Below the pieces are notes generated by a model. The model searched no databases. It was not told the DNA's origin and saw nothing but the letters and a program-made list of their open reading frames with translations. Shown here in pieces: positions 1-41,545 of a DNA stretch of 64,000 nt. Origin of the DNA: a virus; IMG/VR virus record IMGVR_UViG_3300027969_000042, positions 113,546 to 177,545 of that record. One strand, written 5' to 3'. Numbering within the stretch: the first letter of the stretch is position 1; every line of letters starts with the position of its first letter. The position numbers and the translations under genes were made by a program.

Positions 1-2049
1 AGCACCACTCCATTTTTTTGTACCTAAGTTGTAACCCATACCGAATAAACTCCATGGATATTTAGAACCATCGTCACCCCATTTTATTACTTCTTGCCAT
101 ACTGTAGAATTATTTAAAGATAAAACAATTTTTAGTTCTTTTTCTAAGAAACTTTTAAATTGATCATCACTTAATAATCTCTCGTTAAAGGTGCTTTCTT
201 TGTTATATCTTTCAATATTTACATTTTTAAGAGTAAACCTAAAAATTTTATCTATATTATTATCATAAATACCAGTTATTTCAACATAGTTAAACCCAGT
301 TATCTGTGGTTCAGTTGTGACTGGAGCTACAGCTGGAGTTGGTGTAACAGGATTTGTAACTGAATCAATAGTCGGTGTGGCTGTTGTAGCCGCAATAGTT
401 GGTGTATCAGGTGTATCAGGTGTAGTAGGAACAAAATTATCAAACTCACTTTGTTTACAAAGAGTATAAGTAAATGTTTCTTTTTTGGCAATAGTAACTT
501 GACTTTCACATAATGTTATAAATTGATCCCACTGTGATACTGTTTTAAATACTTGAGCACCACCAGAATAATTAAATACATTTTCTGCAGATCCTACATC
601 ACTTGATTTATGTAGTAAAACAATTGATTTTATATTTATTTTCTCTGATTTATAATTATAAATTTTTGTAGAGTCATTTATATGTATAGTAGCCTCGGCA
701 ATTTTTAAACACTTATCATTTTTAGGAGGAGTTGCAGTAGGATCTGATATATAAGTATCTAACTTACATTGATCATTATATTGTCCTAATGCTAATAACC
801 CAACACCCTCTGGTAATAATTCAGTTTTCGGGAAATAACCTGGCATTGTTGTTATTTGATATTCTAATAATTCCCAATTTCCATTTTGATTTTTATAGAA
901 TACGTTTAATGTATCATCAAATTTATTTGATATACTACCATCGTCTTTTTTAGATGATTGGAATGCGACAATATTTAATATCCCAATTTGATCAAATGTT
1001 CGGTAACCCTTAGACTTTAAGAAACTAATCAATTTATCTATCTTTGGATTAGATGTTGTTGATGATAATGGATCGGCAGGTGGATTAGTATTTATAGGAC
1101 CTGCTACACCATTTGCCACACTTGCACTCGCAACAGTTGTCGAAGTAACACCATTAGTACTTGCACTCGCACCTTGTCCAGTTATAGGGGCAGTTGTAGG
1201 AGTATTTATTGAAGGTTCTACGTGTTTATCATTATACTCTGGTTTAGGACCATCTACTGGTTTGAAATTCTCATTAGTCTTTTTAGTTAGATTATTTTCT
1301 TTCTTTGTAGAGTTCCAAGCATCTCCAAGTTGTGCAGTATCTTCTCTATGGGTATTTTTAACAGTTGAGACTTTATTATTATCTACAATATTTACGTGGT
1401 GTGATAAGAAAACAGGATCTCTTAATTGTTTATATTTCATTAAAACTTGTATCATAGCAGGGTTAGTAACAACAGGTGCACCTAAGTTACCTAAATAAGG
1501 TCCTCCTTTATTTCCCATTAAATTATCAACAAACTCATCAAACCAATCCATCCAATGGTTTCCTAAAATTGCTTGTTGTCCTGCAGTTGCATCTCCAATA
1601 TTTACGTGTCTATTATTGTCCTTTAAATTAAGGTCAATTGTATTGTCTGTAATATTGATATTATTGAACTTATGATCTATTTTTAAACCTTCTTTATCGT
1701 TTACGTATATTTGAGTTTTATGATCAAATATAAGAGACTTCATAGAAACATAATCAGTTGCTGATAATGATGTTAGTTTTTTTTCTAAATTTACATTATA
1801 GTGATCTGCAGATATAAACTCTGGTTTGTGTTCATCACCTGAATCAAATACAACTAAAAGTACTTTACCTTTCTCAGGTACATTAAACTCATTACCATTA
1901 AGATCCTTCCACGGACTGGCCCATGGAATTGCACTAACTTCAATATCATCAAATACATCTAAAACTCTAACTCTTGCACGACCTAATTTTAATGGATCAT
2001 TATTATCTTCAACAATACCAATATATGTTTTATTTGCTTCTACTCTCAT
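1..2049 (-). CDS. gp5: T4 gp5-like baseplate hub/spike protein with OB-fold N-terminus and a downstream peptidoglycan-enzyme-like domain; runs off the window start (absent from the ORF track)
   Basis: Manual translation from ATG 2049: MRVEANKTYIGIVEDNNDPLKLGRARVRV...IPWASPW...VPEKGKVLLVVFDSGD.HKP, the gp5/VgrG OB-fold motif. Frame was open in the segments checked, down to position 1. Confidence 0.8.
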   Translation of the reverse strand, partial: MRVEANKTYIGIVEDNNDPLKLGRARVRVLDVFDDIEVSAIPWASPWKDLNGNEFNVPEKGKVLLVVFDSGDEHKPEFISADHYNVNLEKKLTSLSATDYVSMKSLIFDHKTQIYVNDKEGLKIDHKFNNINITDNTIDLNLKDNNRHVNIGDATAGQQAILGNHWMDWFDEFVDNLMGNKGGPYLGNLGAPVVTNPAMIQVLMKYKQLRDPVFLSHHVNIVDNNKVSTVKNTHREDTAQLGDAWNSTKKENNLTKKTNENFKPVDGPKPEYNDKHVEPSINTPTTAPITGQGASASTNGVTSTTVASASVANGVAGPINTNPPADPLSSTTSNPKIDKLISFLKSKGYRTFDQIGILNIVAFQSSKKDDGSISNKFDDTLNVFYKNQNGNWELLEYQITTMPGYFPKTELLPEGVGLLALGQYNDQCKLDTYISDPTATPPKNDKCLKIAEATIHINDSTKIYNYKSEKINIKSIVLLHKSSDVGSAENVFNYSGGAQVFKTVSQWDQFITLCESQVTIAKKETFTYTLCKQSEFDNFVPTTPDTPDTPTIAATTATPTIDSVTNPVTPTPAVAPVTTEPQITGFNYVEITGIYDNNIDKIFRFTLKNVNIERYNKESTFNERLLSDDQFKSFLEKELKIVLSLNNSTVWQEVIKWGDDGSKYPWSLFGMGYNLGTKKWSGA

Positions 2050-2055
2050 AATTTA

Positions 2056-4287
2056 TTACTTTTTAATAAAGTTAGTAGCACCATTTAAAACGTTACTAAC
2101 TGCACCACCTGCAAAGTCTGCCAATTCATTTCTAATATCATAAAAAAATCTATCAGTTGTATTTGTTAGTGCAATACCCATTGGATCTTGTGGACCTACA
2201 TAGATATTTTGTGGTGGACTAATTCCTTTTTTTCCAACAAAGTCAATTAAAAGTTTATTTATTGTTCTTGATAATAAACTAACTCTACCATTTACTAATG
2301 TTGCTAATTCTTGTTTAGCACTTTTTATAGTTTTATCTTTTAATCTTTCAATAAAGTTACCAATATTAGTATCTGCTTTTTTGTTAGTTAGCTCTTTTAA
2401 AGATGTTGGTATTCCAATTGTTTTATTTTTCTCAGTAAAGTTTTTTATGGCAGACTCTGCACTATTTTTTAATAATGTTTTAGGATTATTTAATAACTCT
2501 AATTTTTTATTTTGTTCTTTAACTAATTTACTTAGATCTGCACCGATCGCAGTTTGATCTTTAGCATACCTTTTAAATTTATCTAAGTCAAATTTATCTT
2601 CTTCATCCTTTGTTTGTAAATCATCTATCTTCTCATCAATTGAAAATCCTAAAGGGTTTTCTGGTAAATTAACACCAAATCTATTTAATACTGCTGGTGA
2701 TTTAACACCATTGTTATTAGTTGTATTAGTACCTGATGTGAAAAATCTAGGTAAAGAAGTATCGCTTGTAGTTGATTGTGTTCCACCTCTTTGTACTCTT
2801 GCACCCGCGTTACCGATTTTCCAAATAGCACCACCATCATATCCAATATATTTACCGAAATTTGCAGATGGCATAAATTTTTCAAACTTAACTGTAGAAT
2901 ATTTATAATCAAACTGAATACCATAAGTATCATATGTTGCAATAGCAGCCATATCAATATCAGGATTGTGAGGCATTGTATTAAAAAAGAACTGACATTC
3001 TTTTAAAGAGTAAACATATCTAGATAAGTTATCTTTAATAACCTCTAAATCACCGTTATCCATAGCTTTTCTAACTCTATTAAAATTTCTACACTCAGAA
3101 ACTATAATATCACAGTTAAATCTTAGTAGATTTTCAGGTACTATACTTTTACCATTTGGTTTAGACCAATATAGTAATTTATATAAATGTGCTAAAGTAC
3201 CCATTGTCAGTGATACATCCTCTGTAAAATCAAGTGTAATAACATCCGTTCTATAATCAACCAGAAATTTTTTCTTATCTGGAGTATTTGATTCTATTAA
3301 ATTTCCTAATCCACCAATTTTTTTAAGATAATAACTCATATATGATGTTTTTCCACCTCTAAAAAGATCTTTAGAACTATCAGTATTTGCATAACCAGGT
3401 TTAGTTTTACTCATTGATACTTGTTCATCATTTATATTTACAGTAGTTTTAGTTCTAAATAGTTTTACAAATTGTTGTTTAAAATCCTCATAGACCGGAA
3501 TTTTATACTTTATCTCATCAACCCCACTATAAATCTTTAAAAAATCAAGTACAGAACCATTTAATAATGGAGAGGATATATCATCTATTATAATCTCAAA
3601 TCCAAACATAACAGGGTCGTTATTCTCATAAGGTGTTTGTTGAAATTGTGATAAACGTAATTCTGATTTACCATTTTCTGGATTTTCAATAGGAGTTAAA
3701 TTATCAATTATTTGTAAACCATGTTTAAAATAATCAGTTCTTGTATCATTAAATAATAAGTAATAATCACGTGTACTATAGGGAGATGATTTCAAATCTT
3801 TTGGTTTTTTAGGTAAATTTTTACTCTCACTAAACCTCTCATCAGTATCTAAGATAGTAGAATTTGCACCCGGCTTTATTAGTTGTCCCAACCAATCAAC
3901 ATACTCATACTCTCCTACTTTAATTTGATTTACTGTATTAGGAGTTGCTTCTAATTTATTTTCAGGACTAGTAGTATTAGTATCACCATTCGCATATTGT
4001 TCGGTTGACTTTGGAGTACTACCATATCTAAAATCTTTACTAGGTCCTATAAAATATGGAGACAAAAATCCTTTATCAATACTTGCCTGTGGCCAAGGAT
4101 TTCCATTTTTAATAATATTATCAATATTTGATCTCAAATCACCTTTAAGCTTATTAAGTTCAATAGTTTCAATTTGTCCAGTTTCTTTGTTAAAGATAGT
4201 ATAAGTTCCTGCTTTATACGAGTATTTAGGAGGAGTACCAACAATTGATTCAGCACTAGTAGAAGTAGACAGTTTACTTAGATCCAT
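2056..4287 (-). CDS. Hypothetical protein, probably virion structural (743 aa)
   Basis: Long ORF in the baseplate cluster with a late-promoter-like site upstream; no recognisable motif. Confidence 0.5.
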   Translation of the reverse strand: MDLSKLSTSTSAESIVGTPPKYSYKAGTYTIFNKETGQIETIELNKLKGDLRSNIDNIIKNGNPWPQASIDKGFLSPYFIGPSKDFRYGSTPKSTEQYANGDTNTTSPENKLEATPNTVNQIKVGEYEYVDWLGQLIKPGANSTILDTDERFSESKNLPKKPKDLKSSPYSTRDYYLLFNDTRTDYFKHGLQIIDNLTPIENPENGKSELRLSQFQQTPYENNDPVMFGFEIIIDDISSPLLNGSVLDFLKIYSGVDEIKYKIPVYEDFKQQFVKLFRTKTTVNINDEQVSMSKTKPGYANTDSSKDLFRGGKTSYMSYYLKKIGGLGNLIESNTPDKKKFLVDYRTDVITLDFTEDVSLTMGTLAHLYKLLYWSKPNGKSIVPENLLRFNCDIIVSECRNFNRVRKAMDNGDLEVIKDNLSRYVYSLKECQFFFNTMPHNPDIDMAAIATYDTYGIQFDYKYSTVKFEKFMPSANFGKYIGYDGGAIWKIGNAGARVQRGGTQSTTSDTSLPRFFTSGTNTTNNNGVKSPAVLNRFGVNLPENPLGFSIDEKIDDLQTKDEEDKFDLDKFKRYAKDQTAIGADLSKLVKEQNKKLELLNNPKTLLKNSAESAIKNFTEKNKTIGIPTSLKELTNKKADTNIGNFIERLKDKTIKSAKQELATLVNGRVSLLSRTINKLLIDFVGKKGISPPQNIYVGPQDPMGIALTNTTDRFFYDIRNELADFAGGAVSNVLNGATNFIKK

Positions 4288-4330
4288 TAAGTTAAATTAT
4301 ATTTGTAGTATATATAAATATTTTACTTTT

Positions 4331-6475
4331 CTATGCGACTTGTACTCCCGTCAATTTAGCGATTTTTTTACCACCTTGTGCAATTAATGAAGCCGATCTA
4401 GAACCTAGACTTTTACCAGTTCCTAATTTATACATTCTATGACCACCATTTACTCTTTCAATAACACTAGATTTTAATAAAGATTCTGAATCTTTCTTAC
4501 CAGAATTATACTCTTCATTTATTACCTTTAATAATCCTTTAATCCATCCAACTCCATTCCACTGTGCATAAATGACATTAAACATTAATCTACCATCAGA
4601 CTTAATAAGTGCTTGTATATTTTTATCAGGACAATAGTTGTTTAGACTACTATTAAATTTTGGTTCCATCACACCAGCGGCAAGTTTTACTAATTGACTA
4701 TATAATGGTTCTTTTGGCATGTGATTCCATCTCCATTTACTTCTTGCACCGGAACTATCAATTGCAGACCAAAAGTTTTTTGCAGCAGTACTGGTACTAT
4801 CTCCTTGTTTTCTATCTAAACCAAACATGGTTTCACCACTAGTACTATATCTACTATCTTTAACCCTACCATCCTTTGTCATATCTGGATGAAAATATCC
4901 TCCCTCTAAATTAGAAATAACTGCCTCTGTAACTTGTGTAAAAGTCATCGACTTTGTCAGCTTACTTGGTTTTAATTTGGCACTTGCTTCAAAATTTCCA
5001 GCCCCATTATTACCTGAAACAGAGTCAGATGTGTCATTAAGTCTTGCCTCAGCCATATCCATTTGTACTTCTGCCAACTCTTCCATTTGTTCTAATGCAA
5101 ATTCATCTTGACCAGCAAACTCATCCTCAACATATTCACTACCATAAACATCTACACCATCATCATATAATAAAGTTTCATCTTCTTGACCAATAATGAA
5201 TAAATTACCAAAGTCTGCATTTGAAAATATATCCAACTGTTCTACATTAAAAGTAAACTCTTGTGTTCCAATTGTACTTGTAGTTGGACCAGGAATCGAA
5301 CTTTCTGATGCCCCAGTTACGGTACTTGCCGATGAACCCACTGGTAAATCACTTGGTGGTACTACTGGAGGACCATCTGGTTCTGTATATTTAAGATAAA
5401 TTGATAAACCATAAGTACCTTCGATTATATTTTGTAAAGCAAGAATTGCATCAGTTGCAAGATTATTTTTAGTCGAAGTACTTTTACCACCATTAAATGT
5501 AATAGTTCCAGAATTATTTGGTACTACTACTTTAGTCTTTGGATTTGTCCATGGATTTGGTAATCCATTTAATGTACTATTAGGTATTATGTAATTTCCA
5601 CTTTCAATAAAAACTATTTTACCTTGTACTTTCTTCTCAATATCACTCAATGGATTTATTACACTCAATATATAATCAGTGTTTGTACCGGATTGTGTTC
5701 CAGACTGTGTTCCAGAAGTTTGAGATGGAAAAAAACCATCACCTGCTTCTAAAACTGCCAGAAAATATTTAGATTGTTCAGCAGTACCTAAAGGTAACCG
5801 AGTACCTGTATGATAATAACCTTTTAAATAATCATCAGTCAACTCATCTTCAATTCTCATAAAAATACTAGAGTAGTCTTTATATTTTAAATTTGATACA
5901 GATATTTTTGTATTATATATAACTCTATATAAAGAATGCATCCAAAAGTCAAACCAAGCTTTACCACCTAAGTTTTTTAGTTGTTTATATGATTTCAAAC
6001 TTTCAAAACTACCATCTTTAGTTCTTAATATATTATATAAATCCTGGTGTGTTTTAAGACCTGTTTCATATTGTTCTGCCAAGTATGACATAGTTGCGTA
6101 AGTATATCCTTCGGTGTATAAAGAGGTTGGAGTTATTAGATTATCATCTCTATCATATTTTCTATCGACATAATCTTCTACAATCTCAGGGTTTGACCTA
6201 TAATTATTATATTGGATACTATAGTTTTTAGGTCCACTTGCAGGATAAGACCAGTCAAATAATTGACCTAATGTTGTTACATCAAATCCGTCTATTGTAA
6301 ATTTATCAGTGATACCTAAAACATCCATTTTTGGCATCTTTAGTGTAAAGGGATCCGTAAGTGCAATTGCAGTTTGTCTAGCTGCTAAGTAAGCATCTAC
6401 CTCACTTTGTGCATTTGCTATCTCTACATCTACTGCAGTATTCCATGCATCAATAAGCTCTTGTATCTTTGACAT
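4331..6475 (-). CDS. Virion-associated protein with a C-terminal GH108-like (lysozyme-fold) domain
   Basis: C-terminal AVISNLEGGYFHP...SGETMFGLDRK resembles the GH108 EGGY...G.T..GI motif; N-terminus is paralogous to 6482..9436. Confidence 0.6.
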   Translation of the reverse strand: MSKIQELIDAWNTAVDVEIANAQSEVDAYLAARQTAIALTDPFTLKMPKMDVLGITDKFTIDGFDVTTLGQLFDWSYPASGPKNYSIQYNNYRSNPEIVEDYVDRKYDRDDNLITPTSLYTEGYTYATMSYLAEQYETGLKTHQDLYNILRTKDGSFESLKSYKQLKNLGGKAWFDFWMHSLYRVIYNTKISVSNLKYKDYSSIFMRIEDELTDDYLKGYYHTGTRLPLGTAEQSKYFLAVLEAGDGFFPSQTSGTQSGTQSGTNTDYILSVINPLSDIEKKVQGKIVFIESGNYIIPNSTLNGLPNPWTNPKTKVVVPNNSGTITFNGGKSTSTKNNLATDAILALQNIIEGTYGLSIYLKYTEPDGPPVVPPSDLPVGSSASTVTGASESSIPGPTTSTIGTQEFTFNVEQLDIFSNADFGNLFIIGQEDETLLYDDGVDVYGSEYVEDEFAGQDEFALEQMEELAEVQMDMAEARLNDTSDSVSGNNGAGNFEASAKLKPSKLTKSMTFTQVTEAVISNLEGGYFHPDMTKDGRVKDSRYSTSGETMFGLDRKQGDSTSTAAKNFWSAIDSSGARSKWRWNHMPKEPLYSQLVKLAAGVMEPKFNSSLNNYCPDKNIQALIKSDGRLMFNVIYAQWNGVGWIKGLLKVINEEYNSGKKDSESLLKSSVIERVNGGHRMYKLGTGKSLGSRSASLIAQGGKKIAKLTGVQVA

Positions 6476-6481
6476 TATTCA

Positions 6482-9436
6482 TTAAATATTTTTTATAGTT
6501 GCTTTTACTTCTTTACCATTTGTAGAAACTTCAGTAATTGTCAATTTAAACGCTTTACCAGAATTGTTCTGAACAAGGAATACCTGACCAACTTTATAAA
6601 CACTATTTGGTGGTACGGCAGTTGATAATATAGGTTGTGTTTGACCCGGTACTACAGGATTTTCGTTATTCTGTGTATTTGTTTCTGCATTTGTAGGTGC
6701 AGAATTTGCATCTTTTTTCAACTCATCATCTGTTTTACTAAGCTCTTTTCTAACAGCGGTAACTTTTTGAGTTAAATTGCCTTGTGTCCAAGTATATGAT
6801 ATATCAATAATAACCCATTCACCTGTTAAACGTTTTTGTGAGATCTCATCATTATTAACAGAAGTTTTCATATTTATAAAGTTTAACTGTATCTTCATAA
6901 ATTTATATAAATTGAAATTTGCGTTAGGAAGTTCTAAATCAACAGAAATTCTAGCCATATTATCAAAGTTTACTTTATTCTGTGTTTCTGAATAATAGTA
7001 TTGTTTATGTACATTCTCAGTATCCATTTTACCAGAGTATCTTGTACGATAATTATCTTTAATACTTTTATCATCAGACGGAGAACCTTTTAGTATAATA
7101 CTTTTTGATCCATCTGATGTCTGTGAATCAACATCAAATACTAAAAATTGCTTTTTTAAACTATCATATGTTTTTGATACTGTGAAGTGACCATTATTAA
7201 GAGAAGTTTGTGTTGAATTATTATTTACTCTATACCTATTAAAGAAAAATGAACTACTATTTTGACTTAAATCATTACTCAATTGTAATTTTACAACCTT
7301 TTCACTTTCTTCTTTTGTATTTAAGTGATTTAAACCTCTCGAATTTATACCAACATCTTTAGATATATCTCTAATCCATTCTTTTTCAATATCTACATAA
7401 TTGAAACAATAATAAAAGTCTACATAACCTATAAGAAATGTTTTATCTGAAATATATGAATGTGAAATAATATCAGTAATAAATGTTCTAAATAGCTTAC
7501 CATTATTTACCCAGGTCATACTATCAGAAGTATTTGTAATATTAGAATTAAATCCTATTCCCAACTCCTTACACATTTTTTGCAATGTCTCAAATGAAGT
7601 TCCTTTATAACTCTGAAATCTTATTTTATAAAAATCTTGAAGGTCTAGTGTACCGACTATTGTATAAGTTTTACTTTTATTTTCTTGGAAATTATTTAAT
7701 TTAAACTTTAGATGTATTGATTTTAGATTCTTTGAACCAGAATTTAAAAATATCTCAAATTTACTATCATCAAGTGGAAATCCATCTTTTTTCATAACTC
7801 CCATTGAGTCAACAAAAACAATAGATACCATAGGTACTAGACCATCATAATATAAATTCAGTGAGTTTATATATCGTTGATCTATCTGAACACCAGAATA
7901 CCAGAAAAATGGAGTAAATCCAAGAGCACCTGCTACTTCTGCATTATCTTTATTATTTTGTAATGCATCAAATTCAATAGGTTTTAGTTTAATTGTTGGT
8001 TTATCTATCTGTGCAATTATTGGACGTGTGCCTTGTATATCTTTTGGTTCTTGTTCACCACCTCTTGACTTATCTTGTGCTATAACATCATCTTCTGGTA
8101 AAACTTTTATTGTAACTTCAGATGTTTCTATAAGATTTGAATCAGGTATTACCGAAATAACATAATCACCAGGTGCATCAAATTGAATACCTGCAAAATT
8201 CACAAAACCATCTTTAACTGTTTGTTCTACTTCACCTATTAGTTCACCAGGACCACTTTTCTTTTGTAGCTTAATCTTTATTCCAGTTGCATCAAAAGTA
8301 CTTTGAGTCATACCAGATTGAGTTGCAGTTAAAGGTGCAGAAGACTGAGTACCAGATTGAGTACCAGATTCAGGTCCGGATACTAAAGAAGTGTCAGATG
8401 GTGTATATTGTAACTTTAATTCTATTCCCCAGTGATAATCTATAAGATTTTGTAGATTTCTAATTGCATCATCTGCTATTATTGTATCACTTAAATTACC
8501 TGTATTATTAAGAGGTCTACCATCATATGAAATAGTACCATTTTTATCAACTTGTTTATCTGTCTTTGGATTTTTCCATGGATTCGGTAAGTTATTTAAT
8601 ACAGATTTTGCAATTCTATCTTTTCCTTGTTCAGAAAATTTAAGTGTACCTTCTATCTTTTTATCATTATCACTTTTTGGATCTTTTACTGATATTTTAT
8701 ATTCTACATTAGGTACATTAGATTGTGTAGTAGATTGAGTACCAGATTGAGTACCAGATTGAGTACCAGATTGAGTCGCAGCTACAACACCAGGTGGAAG
8801 TTGATAGTTATCGCCTGCTTCAATAAAAGCATCGTAAAGAATTGGAAGTGTAGTAATCCAACTTGTTGAAACATCTGCAATATCACCATAATTATATTTG
8901 AATTCTGAAATAAAATCACTATAATCATCAGTAAACTCATCAGAATTTTTATAATCTGATATTGATTTTTTCTCATCTTTTAAAAATTTAAGTGCAGATG
9001 ACATGAACGCATCAAACCATTTTTGTGCACCATATTTTCTAAGGTCATTAATAAATTTTACTTGTAGTGAAGCTCCATATGTTTTTTTAAGAATATCTTC
9101 TAGTGGTTTTGCTCCAGTATCTTGATCCTTAAGCTCTGCAAAAACATCACCGAGACTAGTAGGATCATTTCCACTAGGAAACCATCTTTCACCACCTTCT
9201 GGATTATGATAGATATACTTAAATAGATCTCCAACTGTACTTACAGCGGGATCTCTACGATAAACACCATCACTATCTGGTTCTTTCTTATAGGGCCAAG
9301 AACAAATTTTACCATAGGTTATTGCAATAGCAGACGCTCTTGCAGTTTTATATTCGGCTACTTTACCAGTATAAAAGTTAAGTTTTGCTAAAGTGAGAGT
9401 CTCAAAATTATCAATGAAAATTTGTATTTTTGACAT
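6482..9436 (-). CDS. Putative baseplate hub protein (gp27/late-control-D-like C-terminal half) with an accessory N-terminal module
   Basis: C-terminal half has hub-like architecture (GTSFETLQKMCKELGIGF...FITDIISHSY...YVDFYYCFNYVD...LTGEWVIIDISYTW); lies in the baseplate cluster. Confidence 0.5.
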   Translation of the reverse strand: MSKIQIFIDNFETLTLAKLNFYTGKVAEYKTARASAIAITYGKICSWPYKKEPDSDGVYRRDPAVSTVGDLFKYIYHNPEGGERWFPSGNDPTSLGDVFAELKDQDTGAKPLEDILKKTYGASLQVKFINDLRKYGAQKWFDAFMSSALKFLKDEKKSISDYKNSDEFTDDYSDFISEFKYNYGDIADVSTSWITTLPILYDAFIEAGDNYQLPPGVVAATQSGTQSGTQSGTQSTTQSNVPNVEYKISVKDPKSDNDKKIEGTLKFSEQGKDRIAKSVLNNLPNPWKNPKTDKQVDKNGTISYDGRPLNNTGNLSDTIIADDAIRNLQNLIDYHWGIELKLQYTPSDTSLVSGPESGTQSGTQSSAPLTATQSGMTQSTFDATGIKIKLQKKSGPGELIGEVEQTVKDGFVNFAGIQFDAPGDYVISVIPDSNLIETSEVTIKVLPEDDVIAQDKSRGGEQEPKDIQGTRPIIAQIDKPTIKLKPIEFDALQNNKDNAEVAGALGFTPFFWYSGVQIDQRYINSLNLYYDGLVPMVSIVFVDSMGVMKKDGFPLDDSKFEIFLNSGSKNLKSIHLKFKLNNFQENKSKTYTIVGTLDLQDFYKIRFQSYKGTSFETLQKMCKELGIGFNSNITNTSDSMTWVNNGKLFRTFITDIISHSYISDKTFLIGYVDFYYCFNYVDIEKEWIRDISKDVGINSRGLNHLNTKEESEKVVKLQLSNDLSQNSSSFFFNRYRVNNNSTQTSLNNGHFTVSKTYDSLKKQFLVFDVDSQTSDGSKSIILKGSPSDDKSIKDNYRTRYSGKMDTENVHKQYYYSETQNKVNFDNMARISVDLELPNANFNLYKFMKIQLNFINMKTSVNNDEISQKRLTGEWVIIDISYTWTQGNLTQKVTAVRKELSKTDDELKKDANSAPTNAETNTQNNENPVVPGQTQPILSTAVPPNSVYKVGQVFLVQNNSGKAFKLTITEVSTNGKEVKATIKNI

Positions 9437-18733: not shown

Positions 18734-19045
18734 ATGAAAAGAATTGATACATTTAATAAGTTTAATGAAAGTGAAGACAATAAAAGGTTTGTAGGTCCTA
18801 ATGGAGAGTTTCAACCTACTGAACAACCAAAAGAAGGAACTACTACTATAAAATTTATGGAAGAACTACTTGAATGGATATATTATCATGATAGCATGCC
18901 TTTTGAAGAAAAAATGAAATTCATAACTGGTATTGAAGAGCAGATACAATTACTTCTAAATGGTGATGGAGGTGGTGCACCATTTGGCATGCCAATCAAT
19001 TATATACCAACTTGGTCAACAAAACTAAAAAAAGATTTAAAATAA
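18734..19045 (+). CDS. Hypothetical protein with a capsid-targeting-like N-terminus
   Basis: Starts MKRIDTFNKFNES. Confidence 0.6.
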   Translation: MKRIDTFNKFNESEDNKRFVGPNGEFQPTEQPKEGTTTIKFMEELLEWIYYHDSMPFEEKMKFITGIEEQIQLLLNGDGGGAPFGMPINYIPTWSTKLKKDLK

Positions 19046-19074
19046 AAATCCTCTCAATATTGAGAGGATTTTTT
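19045..19074. terminator. Bidirectional intrinsic terminator
   Basis: Palindrome ATCCTCTCAATATTGAGAGGAT. Confidence 0.85.
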
Positions 19075-19075
19075 A

Positions 19076-20527
19076 TTAGAAGCCTCCGAAGATGTCCATC
19101 ACGACCGACAACCTTTTAGTTATTTCAGGTAAACCTAATGGTTCAATAATTGAATTGATTGGAGAAAGTATAGCTTTCGCGAACTGTTCGTCATAATCTA
19201 TCTCTGGAGCGAACTCATGAGGGTATGAACCTCTCATATAAGCAAACTGATCATTCACAGTTTTATCCTTACAAACATAATACTTAATCTTTGTACCCGA
19301 TTTAATAAATTCATATTTCTGTTGTGCTGCTCTATCCAAATTTAATAAGTAATTATGATAAGCAGCTGCTTTGACTGCGAAGTGAGCACCATTTACATAT
19401 CTCAAAGGTAAAACCTTATCATCAATAATTTTAGCATCATAGTTAGAACAAGAAGACTGCATTGCAATATCATCAATATCAGCTAGCTCAAACTCTTTTC
19501 TAAGATTTTTAACTAACTTCAATAATTCTTTTATGTTGAATGTATCTGGATTAGAAAATAAGTATCTTACAATATCTACAATCTTATCTCTTGCAAATAA
19601 AGGTGTAGATGATCTTACAAGTTCAACTCCTTTAGGGAATATGTAAGTCATAGGATCAAAGTTGATACCATCTTCATGTACAATATGCTGAATATATTTC
19701 TTTTTAGCAATATTGATAATTGATTCAGAAATCTTTTCTAACTCAAAGTCTTCTTTATTCTCTACTCCAAATGAAGCAGCATAATCTTCTAAACATTGTT
19801 TGAAATATCCACCATACCTAAAATGGTCTAAGCCTTGAATTAGTTCTAATTCACTAGTCCAATTCCATTTTATTTCTGATGTAAATACACCATCATTTAT
19901 CATACCATTAAGATTTCTATCTTTAATAAAATACCCATCAAATACTAATAGGTCATACGCATTACAAATTGTATCTTTTAATTCACTAACTGAATGAACA
20001 ACGGCAACGCAGTTTGGATTATTATGTCTTACTTTTTCTTTTGAAAGAACAATAAACTTTTTATCAATCTTATCAACTTCACTTAAAACTAAATTCTCCC
20101 AATCACAATGATCAATTGCTGGTTTAAATGATACAAATAATGAGTCAGTATCAGCATAAATACTAACATGTTCATTTTTATCAATTTGAGTAACATTTTT
20201 TATTCCTACTTTATCGTGTACTTCAAAATCAAGATGCCATTGGTTATACCAATAATCTTCATTTACTCTATCCATTGTTTTTGTAAGATCACGACCTTGT
20301 GCCGTTATTGTGCCTGCTACGTGATTATTATATAATATGAAGTAGGCCGTTGCGAATGCTCCGCTAATTTCCCCCACCACATAACGTAGTGGGGGCTAAG
20401 CATAGGAGCCATTAAGCACAAGCTTCAATGCTGTCTGCATTGCGTTATAGTATTCAACATCTTTTTTTAGTTGTACTGCTTGTATCTTTAATGACTCTAT
20501 TTTTAATTTTTTTTCTTCTCTTGTCAT
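19076..20527 (-). CDS. gp43: Family-B DNA polymerase, C-terminal subunit (fingers-palm-thumb), interrupted by a 39-nt insertion with an in-frame TAG
   Basis: ATG at 20527 is in frame with 19076..20380. Motif B reads ALKLVLNGSY|GAFATAYF once 20363..20401 is removed (470 aa). Motif C YADTDS and AKKKY are present; motif A and the exonuclease domain are absent. Confidence 0.9.
20363..20401 (-). other. 39-nt GC-rich hairpin insertion (coding gap or mini-intron candidate) in polymerase motif B
   Basis: GCTTAGCCCCCACTACGTTATGTGGTGGGGGAAATTAGC lies between TAT (Tyr) and GGA (Gly); stem CCCCCAC/GTGGGGG; TAG at 20396..20398. Confidence 0.85.
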
Positions 20528-20531
20528 AAAT

Positions 20532-20558
20532 ATTATATGAATATATATATAAAAGTTT
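20532..20558 (-). promoter_or_regulatory. Putative early/middle promoter AAACTT-N15-TATAAT (polymerase subunit)
   Basis: The same architecture recurs upstream of replication genes. Confidence 0.5.
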
Positions 20559-20591
20559 TAAAGGAACATATGGGGCTTTAATATATATGTT

Positions 20592-21455
20592 ATGATAAAG
20601 AATGACAAAATTAAAGTAAATATTTCATATAGGAATATTACACATTATATTAAATTAGGATATAATCCTATTTTAAATAAAGAATTAGAAATCGAAACTA
20701 ATCATTTATCAACATCATCACATGTTAAGATTGATGTTATATGTAAAATATGTGGAATCGAGAATAATATTATGTATTATAAATATATTGATAATGTTGA
20801 AAGACACGGTTTCTATGGTTGTAGAAAATGCTCCAGACAAAAAGCGGCAATGACATCATTAGAGAAATATGGAGTTGATAATTATAGTAAAACAAATGAA
20901 TGGAAGGATAGAGTTGAAAAAACAAATATTGATAAATTCGGTTATAAAACAAATTTATTATCACCTGATTATAAAGAAAGTATATCAAATATATTACTTG
21001 ATAAATATGGTACAAAAAATTGGTGGGAGATAAGAAATACTAATAAAAAATCAAAGTTAGTTATAATTGATAATATTATTAAAAATGTAATAATATATTC
21101 CGAAGATTTATATGATAACGGATTTATAAATGATAATTACCTTCTGTATAGAAATGAATGTAGAAGAATAACAAATTCTAATATTAAAAATCTAATGATT
21201 GAATGGAATGGTACTGATTACTATACTAAAGAGAATATATCGAATAATTTTACTCTACCACATAATGATCCTGGGTACCCAACAATAGATCATAAAGAAT
21301 CGGTTTATTTTGGATTTACTAATAATATAAGTTCCGAAGATATAGGTTCACTAGAAAATTTATGTATTACAAAAAGAGGTATAAACTCAACAAAAAGAGA
21401 TTTATGTGAATTGGAGTTTTTAGAAAAGTTTTTAAATAAAAAAGAAGAACATTAG
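20592..21455 (+). mobile_element. Free-standing HNH homing endonuclease with a Zn-finger/KYGVDN-type DNA-binding N-terminus
   Basis: CKIC...CRKC, KYGVDNYSK and a C-terminal PTIDHK...ENLCITKRGIN HNH motif; late promoter upstream. Confidence 0.75.
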
Positions 21456-21985
21456 TTCTTCTTTTTTGGTTTTAATATCATAAGCCATTTACTAGACTCA
21501 AGTTTTGGTATATTTTCGGCAGATCCAAACTCGTCCAACATTGTGGCAAATTTTAGCATTACTAGTTGTCCTCTATCTGGATTACCTTTTTGTCTTCCTT
21601 TTAATTGAATAACACATTTTACTTTATCATTATCCAAAAGGAACTCTTTACCCTTCTTAGCTTTAATCTCTAAATCGTGATCTGAAATCTCACAAGAAAG
21701 TTTTATTTCTTTTAATTCTGATTTAATTGCATTTTTCTTTTGTTCTTTTAACATTTTCTCGATGTTATAAAGGAACTTACCATAATCTTCAATTTTGGCA
21801 ATAGGTGGATCTTGATTCTCATTTATTAAAATAAGATCTTTTCCTTCTTCATCTGCAAGACGAAGTGCGTCTTTAGTTCTGATTATTTCTGGTGCTGCAC
21901 CGGTAACGATTAGTCTAACTTCAAATGACTTAATGTCGTCATTTATTTTATGTTTTCTTTTATTATTTGGTTGTTTTTTATTCAA
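21452..21985 (-). CDS. infC: Translation initiation factor IF-3
   Basis: INDDIKSFEVRLI, DLILI...PPIAKIEDYGKFLY, KEIKL...HDLEIK...DKVK..I...GRQ. Confidence 0.95.
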   Translation of the reverse strand: MNKKQPNNKRKHKINDDIKSFEVRLIVTGAAPEIIRTKDALRLADEEGKDLILINENQDPPIAKIEDYGKFLYNIEKMLKEQKKNAIKSELKEIKLSCEISDHDLEIKAKKGKEFLLDNDKVKCVIQLKGRQKGNPDRGQLVMLKFATMLDEFGSAENIPKLESSKWLMILKPKKKN

Positions 21986-22187
21986 TGTTGAATAGCTTTA
22001 TTATTTTTATTTGTCTGTTTATATATTTGTTTTTAAAATCGTAAGAATTCTTTTTCCAGATTTCCCACCATTTGTTTTTTGATTTCAGTGATTCTAGTGG
22101 TATTTTGATTACTAATCTTTGATCGTTACCAATTATATTCCAATCCCAAGTCATTTTATTACTCATCGTCGTCCAGCATCTGTTCAA
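21978..22187 (-). CDS. Small hypothetical protein
   Basis: ORF filling the gap between the clamp gene and infC; true start may be about 22154. Confidence 0.45.
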   Translation of the reverse strand: MNRCWTTMSNKMTWDWNIIGNDQRLVIKIPLESLKSKNKWWEIWKKNSYDFKNKYINRQIKIIKLFNIE

Positions 22188-22941
22188 AGCTCAACATTAA
22201 ATTTGAGTTATTGTCTTTTATAAGCATGAAATTTTCAAAAATAAGGAACTCTATATTTTCCATCTTATCATTTATACAACTTAAAAATCTTTTATTTAGT
22301 ATCAAAGTTGCGTTTCTATCATCGTTTAAATTATCTACTTCTAATTCCCAAGAAGATTTCTCTGATAAAGTAACAACTCCTTTAACAACGTCCATATTTA
22401 TGATTCTCTCACCATTTATACCAGATAACTTTTTAATGTCTAAGAAATCACTATTAGGAATATTAAAAGTCCATTTTTTATTTCTAACATCTAATCTAGT
22501 TGCCAGTGCTACTTTACCAATATCTCTTATTGTCCCACCTTCACCACCTAACCAGTTTACTTTAAATTTACCAGAAGATATTTGAAGACCTCTTGCAATA
22601 TATAATGAATCATCATCTGGTGATTCTTTATAAGAAACATCAAATCCTATTTTATCCATATCTTTTATGAATGCCAAGTTTTTAACGAACTTTTTAGCAG
22701 AAGGTATGATAATATCTAATGAAAAATCTTCCATATCATTATCAAAGTACTCTTTTGTAGGTAAAAGAAAGTTTTTGAATGCCAAAATAACATTACCACC
22801 ACCTAACATTGCATACATTAAAATATTTTCATTATCTATCTTTAATTTAACGGTGTCATCAATGGATGCTACGGTATTTAACTTCTCGATGAAGTCACTA
22901 AACATACTTGGTACTACTTTTAACTTTACTTTTCCTGCCAT
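22159..22941 (-). CDS. gp45: Probable DNA sliding clamp (gp45/PCNA-like)
   Basis: 260 aa with a two-domain beta/alpha pattern (LKIDNENILMYA...LILNKRFLSCI...IEFLIFENFMLI); replication context. Confidence 0.55.
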   Translation of the reverse strand: MAGKVKLKVVPSMFSDFIEKLNTVASIDDTVKLKIDNENILMYAMLGGGNVILAFKNFLLPTKEYFDNDMEDFSLDIIIPSAKKFVKNLAFIKDMDKIGFDVSYKESPDDDSLYIARGLQISSGKFKVNWLGGEGGTIRDIGKVALATRLDVRNKKWTFNIPNSDFLDIKKLSGINGERIINMDVVKGVVTLSEKSSWELEVDNLNDDRNATLILNKRFLSCINDKMENIEFLIFENFMLIKDNNSNLMLSFEQMLDDDE

Positions 22942-41168: not shown

Positions 41169-41545
41169 TGGAGATGACGTTGTACTGCCCAACGTGTCTT
41201 TCTCAGTTAAAAATAACTATTCGTTTACAGGTTTAGTAAGTTTTTCTAAGTCTTACAAAATAATTAGTTTTTGAATCTCAAACTACTAATAAAAAGGTTT
41301 CACTTTTAAACTGGTGACCACAGCTGTAGAATTTTTGGTGTATTAGTCTTATTTGATTAAGCTACTACTAAATCTCTATTAGAGATCAAATTGTTTTGTA
41401 AGCAAGCTACTAAATCTTCACTTGTTCCTACTTGATTAACGTTGCCGTTTAAAATTGTATCAACTAATTTATTAATCGGTCATTGTAGACCACCCGATAC
41501 CTGCATAATCACTCTTAGTCCGCAAATCAATTCTGAAACACCCCC
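41169..41545 (-). ncRNA. ssrA: tmRNA (CCA not encoded)
   Basis: 5' GGGGGUG pairs with 3' CAUCUCC-A, including G3.U70; D-loop-like UUUCAGAAUUGA; T-arm ACGUUG-GGCAGUA-CAACGU; tag ORF 41357..41446 ends LVVA-stop; late promoter at 41560..41568 and terminator at 41134..41164. Confidence 0.9.

Follow-up and report, generated by a model that had tools for sequence, protein, structure and literature searches.

The window analysed here is a stretch of 64,000 nucleotides (nt) of viral DNA, positions 113,546 to 177,545 of the 177.5-kb IMG/VR record IMGVR_UViG_3300027969_000042. It comes from an uncultured T4-like phage, whose genes include those for a Gp23-type capsid protein, a prohead protease, and a phage IF3. 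In this phage, the DNA polymerase, which is of family B, is split over 2 genes that lie 41 kb apart. The first encodes an N-terminal subunit of 508 amino acids (aa) with the exonuclease domain, motif A, and a helical tail at its end, while the C-terminal gene opens within the second fingers helix. This second gene, on the minus strand, is interrupted in its catalytic motif B by a stop-containing, hairpin-forming insert of 39 nt. Upstream of the insert, a leader open reading frame (ORF; 20402-20527, minus strand) encodes Met1 to Tyr42 of the subunit, which covers the second fingers helix and ends with the motif B Y; it runs for 42 codons to KLVLNGSY and continues with an Ala codon and a TAG. 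Downstream, an ORF of 428 codons (19076-20362, minus strand) starts at GGA, the G of the motif B YG, and encodes the palm and thumb. Its frame begins GAFATAYF and matches Pfam DNA_pol_B and positions 525-839 of 856 of phrog_262. Divergently oriented, 64 nt upstream of the polymerase start, lies a free-standing gene resembling HNH homing endonuclease genes (20592-21455, plus strand; 287 aa), which is related to the PHROG homing-endonuclease families and to DUF7487.

Read along the minus strand, the interrupted region has the order AAT GGC TCC TAT GCT TAG, a hairpin CCCCCACTAC/GTTAT/GTGGTGGGGG, and AAATT AGC GGA GCA TTC. The coding gap (20363-20401, minus strand) separates the Tyr42 codon TAT, the proposed take-off codon (20404-20402, minus strand) at the end of the leader ORF, from the Gly codon GGA at which decoding is proposed to restart (20362-20360, minus strand). 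Within the gap, the first triplet GCT (20401-20399) is followed by the in-frame TAG (20396-20398), the second codon past the take-off codon, which touches the base of the stem. The hairpin core (20371-20395) consists of CCCCCACUAC, the loop GUUAU, and GUGGUGGGGG, after which a tail of AAATT and AGC (20370-20363) leads up to the GGA; all of these lie on the minus strand. This arrangement is the one quoted in an earlier first-pass annotation, with the exception that the TAG was there placed after 42 codons: it follows 43, with Tyr42 closing the authentic residues and Ala43 contributed by the insert. Removing the 39 nt in silico gives KLVLNGSYGAF, the ungapped motif that the annotation had expected and the uninterrupted sequence of the closest relatives, L004 (98% identity) and L007 (94%), in which the site is empty.

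The insert is an island of approximately 50% GC in surrounding DNA of approximately 25-30% GC, with a genome mean of 29%. Its predicted fold has a 10-base pair (bp) stem with a z-score of -2.8, and equally good folds were obtained in 0 of 200 shuffled sequences. Pairing of the flanks with each other (GCUCC with GGAGC), proposed in the first-pass annotation, does occur in the predicted fold; it is not conserved in other inserts at the same site, and is no feature of the family. The hairpin is present as a single copy in the window and in the whole record, and no Rfam family matched the insert at E<=1 or at the gathering threshold. An identical 51-nt sequence, comprising the insert and its junctions, was found in contig Ga0209084_1000337 (L083), the backbone of which is only 94% identical to that of the window. 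Since the same allele is present in this independent strain, the assembly error that had been raised as a possible cause is excluded, as is a one-off dead allele. Among the viral contigs, no precisely excised allele with the flanks of the window was found, a comparison of DNA that is silent on RNA.

A scan of IMG/VR for relatives yielded 74 loci encoding the same C-terminal subunit, with 52-98% identity across the 428 downstream codons. At 23 of these, including L004 and L007, the motif was uninterrupted (LALKLVLNGSYGAF), while 47 loci, in addition to the window, carried an insert. The search for the insert and for covarying stems in related genomes, suggested at the outset, thus returned 34 distinct inserts. 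Their lengths of 36, 38, 39, 40, 41, 42, 43, 44, 46, and 48 nt cover all 3 reading frames. They occupy 6 sites inside an 11-codon stretch of motif B, which we term class A' (QLA^L), A (QLAL^K), B (LKLV^L), C (NGS^Y), D (NG^SY), and E (SY^G), with the caret marking the position of the insert; the insert of the window belongs to class E, as do 8 other distinct inserts. Each genome carries one copy, always in polymerase motif B, and several identical inserts were found again in 3 or 4 different metagenomes. In 505 kb of related loci, no copies were found other than those at the polymerase site; a dispersed mobile hairpin, similar to a byp or a miniature inverted-repeat transposable element, was ruled out by the lack of any further copy there or in the genome. 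The leader ORF is intact in all insert-bearing loci, with a ratio of nonsynonymous to synonymous polymorphism (pN/pS) of 0.25, compared with 0.28 in insert-free genomes, and the coding sequence on both sides of the insert is under purifying selection. As a separate observation, the inserts of L054 (42 nt) and L055/L056 (41 nt) are alike except for a run of 8 rather than 7 G residues in the 3' arm, which is either a homopolymer sequencing error or real length variation. This one-G difference led us to regard the frame as irrelevant to the element.

The inserts share a common design: a take-off codon, 5-6 nt that usually include a stop, a covarying hairpin of 9-16 bp, and a purine-rich tail of 4-8 nt. 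The stem begins 5-6 nt past the take-off codon in 28 of the 34 inserts, and the loop consists of 4 nt in 22. Across 26 different 5' stem arms, the basal 4 or 5 C-G pairs are fixed, while every Watson-Crick type is seen at the 6 loop-proximal pairs with pairing kept; the hairpin is maintained by compensatory changes. GNRA and UUCG loops are known as RNA-stabilizing tetraloops, and their presence in 11 of the 34 inserts argues for a structure that acts at the RNA level. A stop occurs within 2 codons of the take-off codon in 28 inserts, directly after it in 4 and with one codon in between in 24, the window among them. From the stem to the landing codon, the tail measures 4-8 nt in 30 of the 34, consists of 57% A, 25% G, and 4% C, and in none of the inserts contains a premature cognate triplet. 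The G-rich 3' arm ends 4-8 nt ahead of the landing codon; Shine-Dalgarno (SD) motifs are not enriched at the gene starts of the phage.

The most specific feature of the family lies at the 3' edge. In all 25 distinct inserts outside class E, the take-off codon recurs at this edge, either unchanged or with a different third position (CTT, CTG, or CTC to CTA; GCT to GCT or GCA; GTT to GTT or GTA; TCT to TCA; GGT to GGT). The matched codons are all drawn from four-codon boxes (CUN, GUN, UCN, GCN, and GGN). Differences limited to the third position are what re-pairing of a single peptidyl-tRNA tolerates, while splicing or template switching would neither need nor prefer them. In one class D lineage, the spacer between the 2 GGT codons has changed from GCTTAC to GCCAAC, and the spacer is therefore not decoded.

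Two further observations concern the edges of the inserts. In more than 10 inserts (L018, L021, L024, L028, L063, L071, L072, and others), the landing codon comes right after a stop in its own frame, usually a TGA inside an AAATGA motif. In addition, among genes in which the insert follows the Lys codon of LKLV, a count by eye gave AAG for this codon in 12 of 14 distinct sequences, compared with 3 of 14 insert-free genes (window 20405-20440, minus strand, and its equivalents in L008, L009, L020, L035, L036, L050, L051, L069, and L073). The neighboring codons are likewise enriched in GC. This bias may reflect shared cassette ancestry, changes that confer immunity at the endonuclease site, or structure at the 5' side.

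Ordinary decoding does not account for these genes. No single frameshift opens a stop-free route through 23 of the 34 inserts, and the remaining 11 offer a formal route. In-frame inserts would require read-through of a stop, adding 12-16 unrelated residues within the invariant YG, and the insert of L050 contains 2 in-frame stops. Nor can the downstream part simply be started anew, as 25 of the 34 inserts lack an in-frame start codon (ATG, GTG, or TTG) for it. In the window genome TAG is an ordinary stop: the 134 long ORFs of the whole record end in TAA (118), TAG (15), or TGA (1). ARAGORN detected no tRNA or transfer-messenger RNA gene in the whole record, which therefore holds no suppressor tRNA; the window region 41169-41545, considered as a possible site of a transfer-messenger RNA, also gave no Rfam match at the gathering threshold. 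An alternative genetic code or a suppressor tRNA was ruled out by this use of TAG in 15 of 134 ORFs, by the lack of tRNA genes, and by the presence of inserts in every frame. Because the insert lies in an invariant catalytic motif, a precise skip is required. The first-pass annotation had arrived at this point from a single sequence, arguing that the insert is not simply translatable and that an essential gene requires its exact omission, and the comparative data agree. They equally bear out its choice of T4 gene 60 as the comparison, given 34 variants in all frames, a covarying hairpin, stops by the take-off codon, wobble-matched codons at 5 of 6 sites, and linkage to an endonuclease. Its alternative of an intact second polymerase copy found no counterpart in the record, for which CheckV estimates a completeness of 74%.

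The divergent HNH gene is closely tied to the insert. Homologs of it lie upstream, in divergent orientation, at 26 of 48 insert-bearing loci and at 0 of 23 empty ones. These homologs share an invariant D233-H234, N256, and N265. An AlphaFold model of the protein (mean predicted local distance difference test score of 78) resembles the Gme HNH nicking endonuclease 4h9d in residues 176-285; with VIA-align, the comparison gave Z 8.6 and a root-mean-square deviation of 3.1 Å over 91 of 97 residues, with other HNH nucleases next. Foldseek alone returned no significant match for the model, Pfam and NCBIfam did not recognize the HNH domain of the 287-aa protein, and phmmer searches of PDB sequences with the endonuclease and with the read-through product gave nothing useful.

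Comparison of closely related strains delimits what moves together. Relative to L004, the window holds approximately 860 bp of extra DNA, corresponding to the HNH gene; from the endonuclease boundary across the insert to approximately position 20345 the 2 differ by approximately 20%, and over the next 330 nt by approximately 1%. Relative to L083, by contrast, there are 3 mismatches in approximately 1,100 nt (20344-21443), against 4-10 per 100 nt in the backbone. Together with the linkage of HNH presence to the insert, these patterns indicate that the HNH gene, the leader, and the insert form one horizontally moving cassette, or co-conversion tract, of approximately 1.1 kb (20344-21443), which comprises the HNH gene, the intergenic promoter region, the leader, the insert, and approximately 20 nt beyond it. 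The GC-rich synonymous codons noticed earlier in the flanks are real, and are explained by the co-conversion tract brought in with the cassette. On the polymerase tree, the presence or site of the insert changes at least 22 times; shuffling gave a mean of 25.0 changes, with as few in 13 of 200 shuffles, so that the distribution is near random. L020 (class E, without endonuclease) and L021 (class A', with endonuclease) encode an identical downstream protein. Inserts retained without the endonuclease mirror the "hit and run" cases of MobA (bioRxiv 10.1101/2022.08.31.505936).

A side observation concerns the endonuclease subfamilies. Endonucleases that are 43-66% identical to that of the window (approximately 255-301 aa) go with sites C, D, and E in 6 of 7 cases, while a group at 34-40% identity (approximately 339-389 aa) goes with sites A, A', and B in 8 of 9. 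The association (Fisher p of approximately 0.009, calculated by hand on lineages that are not fully independent) hints that each subfamily has its own target position.

Taken together, these features make it probable that the insert is part of a translational bypass cassette similar to, but not homologous with, that of T4 gene 60, which would protect the phage from its own nuclease. The endonuclease would cut polymerase alleles that lack the insert, at or close to the conserved DNA of motif B, and repair would copy the cassette in. As the insert would break the target of the endonuclease, its carrier would become immune, by analogy with T4 MobA and gene 60, for which immunity from the own endonuclease has been experimentally shown (precedent in bioRxiv 10.1101/2022.08.31.505936). 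During translation, again by analogy with gene 60, the ribosome would read 42 codons and stall with peptidyl-tRNA-Tyr on UAU, the stall being caused by the adjacent UAG and the stable hairpin that begins 6 nt downstream. The tRNA would then unpair, the mRNA would slide by 39 nt, and decoding would restart at GGA to give NGSY-GAF, so that the joined product would hold the junction peptide LNGSYGAFATAYF / LVLNGSYGAFATAYF. In 5 of the 6 site classes, the tRNA would re-pair at the wobble-matched landing codon.

For class E, to which the window belongs, landing would depend either on a near-cognate pair or on how the hairpin and the short purine-rich tail are arranged in space. Other codon pairs were considered for the window insert and rejected: movement from GCT to GCA would delete the Gly, GCT to GCG lands in the wrong frame, and Ser or Gly pairs would delete the essential Tyr, so that NGSYGAF is restored by none of them. 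The lack of a matched pair, pointed out in the first-pass annotation, extends to all 9 class E inserts. In this class the triplet ahead of GGA is AGC in the window, AAC in L005, L008, L009, and L017, TAA in L020 and L050, CAA in L035, and GAC in L069. In 5 of the 6 independent lineage groups, it keeps 2 of the 3 possible pairs with the GUA anticodon; a rough hand estimate against the composition of the tail gives a p of approximately 0.007, and partial anticodon pairing above chance is suggestive only. Landing in class E may be near-cognate or set by geometry. It is possible, though less likely than not, that its 9 variants, in 6 lineage groups, are bypassed without cognate re-pairing, with the folded hairpin of 10-16 bp skipped as a unit and the frame set by the hairpin and a purine-rich tail of 5-14 nt, in a host that does not use SD motifs. 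Such a skip, should it occur, would be a structure-guided mode of bypassing, distinct from the scanning and re-pairing of gene 60, a possibility that we put forward with caution.

Several points weigh against a bypass of the gene 60 type. The take-off codon of class E is TAT or TAC, yet the triplet before GGA is never TAY (0 of 9 inserts). Unlike in T4, the stop in 24 of 34 inserts follows the matched take-off codon only after an intervening sense codon, and in 6 of 34 the early stop is absent or late. The hairpin begins 5-6 nt past the take-off codon and not at it, and occupies most of the gap. Because the phage shows no SD usage, the mini-SD landing aid of T4 probably does not apply. A tblastn search with the endonuclease against positions 1-8000 of T4 gave no match, a weak test as the T4 mobA is defective, and no similarity to the gene 60 cassette was found. 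Finally, we infer both the cleavage of the motif-B site by the endonuclease and everything concerning decoding from sequence.

Four other explanations have to be set against the bypass. If the hairpin were removed at the RNA level, as a protein-assisted "mini-intron" that a phage or host endoribonuclease cuts out before an RNA ligase seals the ends and restores the frame, no matched landing codon would be needed, which fits the class of the window, and variable lengths in all frames would be equally well explained. An insert that consists of roughly one hairpin with short flanks is also a natural recognition unit, and T4-like phages often encode RNA ligases and a polynucleotide kinase. We nevertheless regard excision as unlikely. 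We found no positive evidence for the mini-intron suggested in the first-pass annotation: there is no match to an Rfam family, 36-48 nt is far below the size of self-splicing elements, for which the 39 nt of the window are too short, and we know of no such excision system in phages. Excision would moreover leave unexplained the wobble-matched second codons in 25 of 25 non-E inserts, with third-position-only differences in family boxes, the stops within 2 codons of take-off in 28 of 34, and the tails free of cognate triplets. These matched codons are equally unexplained if the polymerase were assembled non-covalently from 3 pieces, with a 43-aa helix peptide released at the TAG and the remaining 428 aa started separately, in the window at GTG codons in the 3' arm. 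Fragmentation is evidently tolerated in a polymerase that is already encoded by 2 genes 41 kb apart, the window insert does offer in-frame GTG codons, and selection on the leader would also be expected of a trans-acting peptide. A three-piece enzyme is still improbable, however, given that an in-frame ATG, GTG, or TTG is missing from 25 of 34 inserts, that more than 10 have a landing-frame stop immediately 5' of the landing codon, that a highly stable stem encloses the candidate GTGs, and that the catalytic helix would be broken at 6 different positions, one of them between Y and G.

Read-through or frameshifting would produce a polymerase with approximately 13 extra residues in motif B, in the window by suppression of the TAG to give AxPPLRYVVGEIS. 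This agrees with the window insert being in frame (39 nt) with a single TAG, and with the formal single-frameshift route in 11 of the 34 inserts. We consider it extremely improbable: no route exists in 23 of 34, L050 has 2 in-frame stops, the inserted peptides are unrelated between variants and lie inside the invariant YG, and TAG is a normal stop in a record without a tRNA gene, and hence without a suppressor, according to ARAGORN. One mechanism for one clearly homologous family is also more parsimonious. Another explanation is that the hairpin is crossed at its base, from one short repeat to the other, by RNA polymerase or the replisome, or that the allele is dead and another polymerase is used. 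Palindromes flanked by repeats are prone to deletion in DNA, short direct repeats flank most of the inserts, and a record that is only 74% complete could lack a gene. These repeats, however, amount to 2 nt and a wobble position; a mismatch at the 3' end disfavors template switching, while a wobble suits re-pairing of a tRNA. Against a dead allele stand the purifying selection on both ORFs in dozens of lineages and the failure to find a second polymerase in the record, and identical inserts recur in 3 or 4 independent metagenomes, so that polymerase skipping or a dead allele is highly improbable.

The closest known parallel to the bypass thus remains T4 gene 60, in which a 50-nt translational bypass lies within a MobA homing-endonuclease element (Huang 1988; Bonocora 2011, as cited in bioRxiv 10.1101/2022.08.31.505936). 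Manning and Atkins list the features of MobA/gene 60 cassettes as stops or hungry codons, wobble-matched codons, GNRA or UUCG take-off loops, and an AU-rich 3' gap without premature landing sites (bioRxiv 10.1101/2022.08.31.505936). As in gene 60, an essential replication gene is divided over 2 ORFs with a free-standing HNH gene by the start of the downstream ORF, and a non-coding gap of tens of nucleotides lies approximately 35-45 codons into the ORF (codon 46 in T4). The stop near the take-off codon, the stable take-off hairpin with its frequent GNRA or UUCG loops and compensatory changes, the wobble-matched take-off and landing codons in 5 of 6 site classes, and the A/U-rich 3' part without premature landing triplets are likewise shared. 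In both cases, the endonuclease and the gap are inherited together, with the gap kept after loss of the endonuclease.

There are also clear differences. The host gene here is a family B DNA polymerase, interrupted at motif B, and not Topo2L; gene-60-type cassettes have been found exclusively in Topo2L by Manning and Atkins, who call the cassette unique and in whose text the word "polymerase" is absent (bioRxiv 10.1101/2022.08.31.505936). The endonuclease is divergently oriented, the other half of the polymerase lies 41 kb away, and there are 6 insertion sites rather than one or 2. The hairpin is longer (9-16 bp), is offset by 5-6 nt, and fills most of a shorter gap of 36-48 nt. Usually one sense codon stands between take-off and stop, and SD motifs are not used. 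The site class of the window has no cognate landing codon.

The byps of Magnusiomyces capitatus mitochondria form a second parallel, with 81 copies of 27-55 nt in 12 genes (Lang 2014; Nosek 2015, as summarized in bioRxiv 10.1101/2022.08.31.505936). As far as that summary describes them, byps resemble our inserts as GC-rich hairpins of similar size in a very AT-rich genome, with no role for SD motifs, an AU-rich 3' part, and tolerance of imperfect matches between take-off and landing codons. On the same basis, they differ in being dispersed, where each genome here has one copy that is always in polymerase motif B, and in spreading as GC clusters in mitochondria, where our inserts are linked to a homing endonuclease in a phage and bacterial setting.

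In T4-related phages with a split gp43 (43A/43B), a PolB-type replicase is made from 2 genes, the products of which simply associate. These split genes and the MobE-type insertions of T4-related phages show, as do our loci, that homing endonucleases fracture or invade conserved replication genes. Unlike in our loci, no untranslatable gap inside a coding motif is known from either; the MobE insertion at nrdA is summarized by Manning and Atkins (bioRxiv 10.1101/2022.08.31.505936). Full-text searches of a library of papers returned no report of bypass-type gaps in phage polymerase genes.

The wider context of the gene points to a host among the Bacteroidota. The gene starts of the record show no SD enrichment, with upstream regions of approximately 90% A/T, and the nearest cultured relatives are Chryseobacterium and Flavobacterium phages at approximately 27% identity, with none closer. 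These features and the stop usage together suggest that the host is of the Bacteroidota type. In GenBank, the nearest records come from metagenomic huge phages without annotation, in which the insert sites are empty. The same split polymerase subunit was found on contigs of 436-483 kb (L012, L031, and L069), in records of 634-642 kb (LR756502.1 and LR745206.1), and on contigs of 100-200 kb, so that either genome sizes vary widely within the family or some bins are composite. A homolog of translation initiation factor IF3 with both IF3_N and IF3_C domains (21452-21985, minus strand) adjoins the cassette and is kept in relatives. Beside IF3 and the polymerase, most relatives also carry a gene for a 260-aa protein (22159-22941, minus strand) without a match in Pfam, PHROG, or NCBIfam. 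At 19000-19180, between the convergent polymerase gene and a 103-aa ORF, sub-threshold Rfam matches (STnc430 and Phe_leader) pile up; their most likely source is a terminator hairpin that acts in both directions, and not either of these RNA families.

The first-pass annotation had suggested that the insert could act as a switch for replication. We found no evidence for this; with the insert and the HNH gene as one mobile cassette, the data instead give the reason of a selfish element. For annotation, a confirmed bypass would matter because polymerase genes of this kind will be called pseudogenes or fragments. Efficient long-range bypassing has so far had one example in bacteria and phages, T4 gene 60 with its Topo2L homologs, in addition to the byps of yeast mitochondria. 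If bypassing is indeed how these genes are read, they would form a second, non-homologous family, and the association of a homing endonuclease with a bypass gap would have evolved more than once. The 34 variants at 6 sites, with both matched and unmatched landing, would then constitute a natural mutational series on the roles of the stop, the position of the hairpin, re-pairing, and SD motifs. It would also suggest that the phenomenon reaches phages for which the nearest relatives in culture grow on Bacteroidota, a group of hosts that does not rely on SD motifs.

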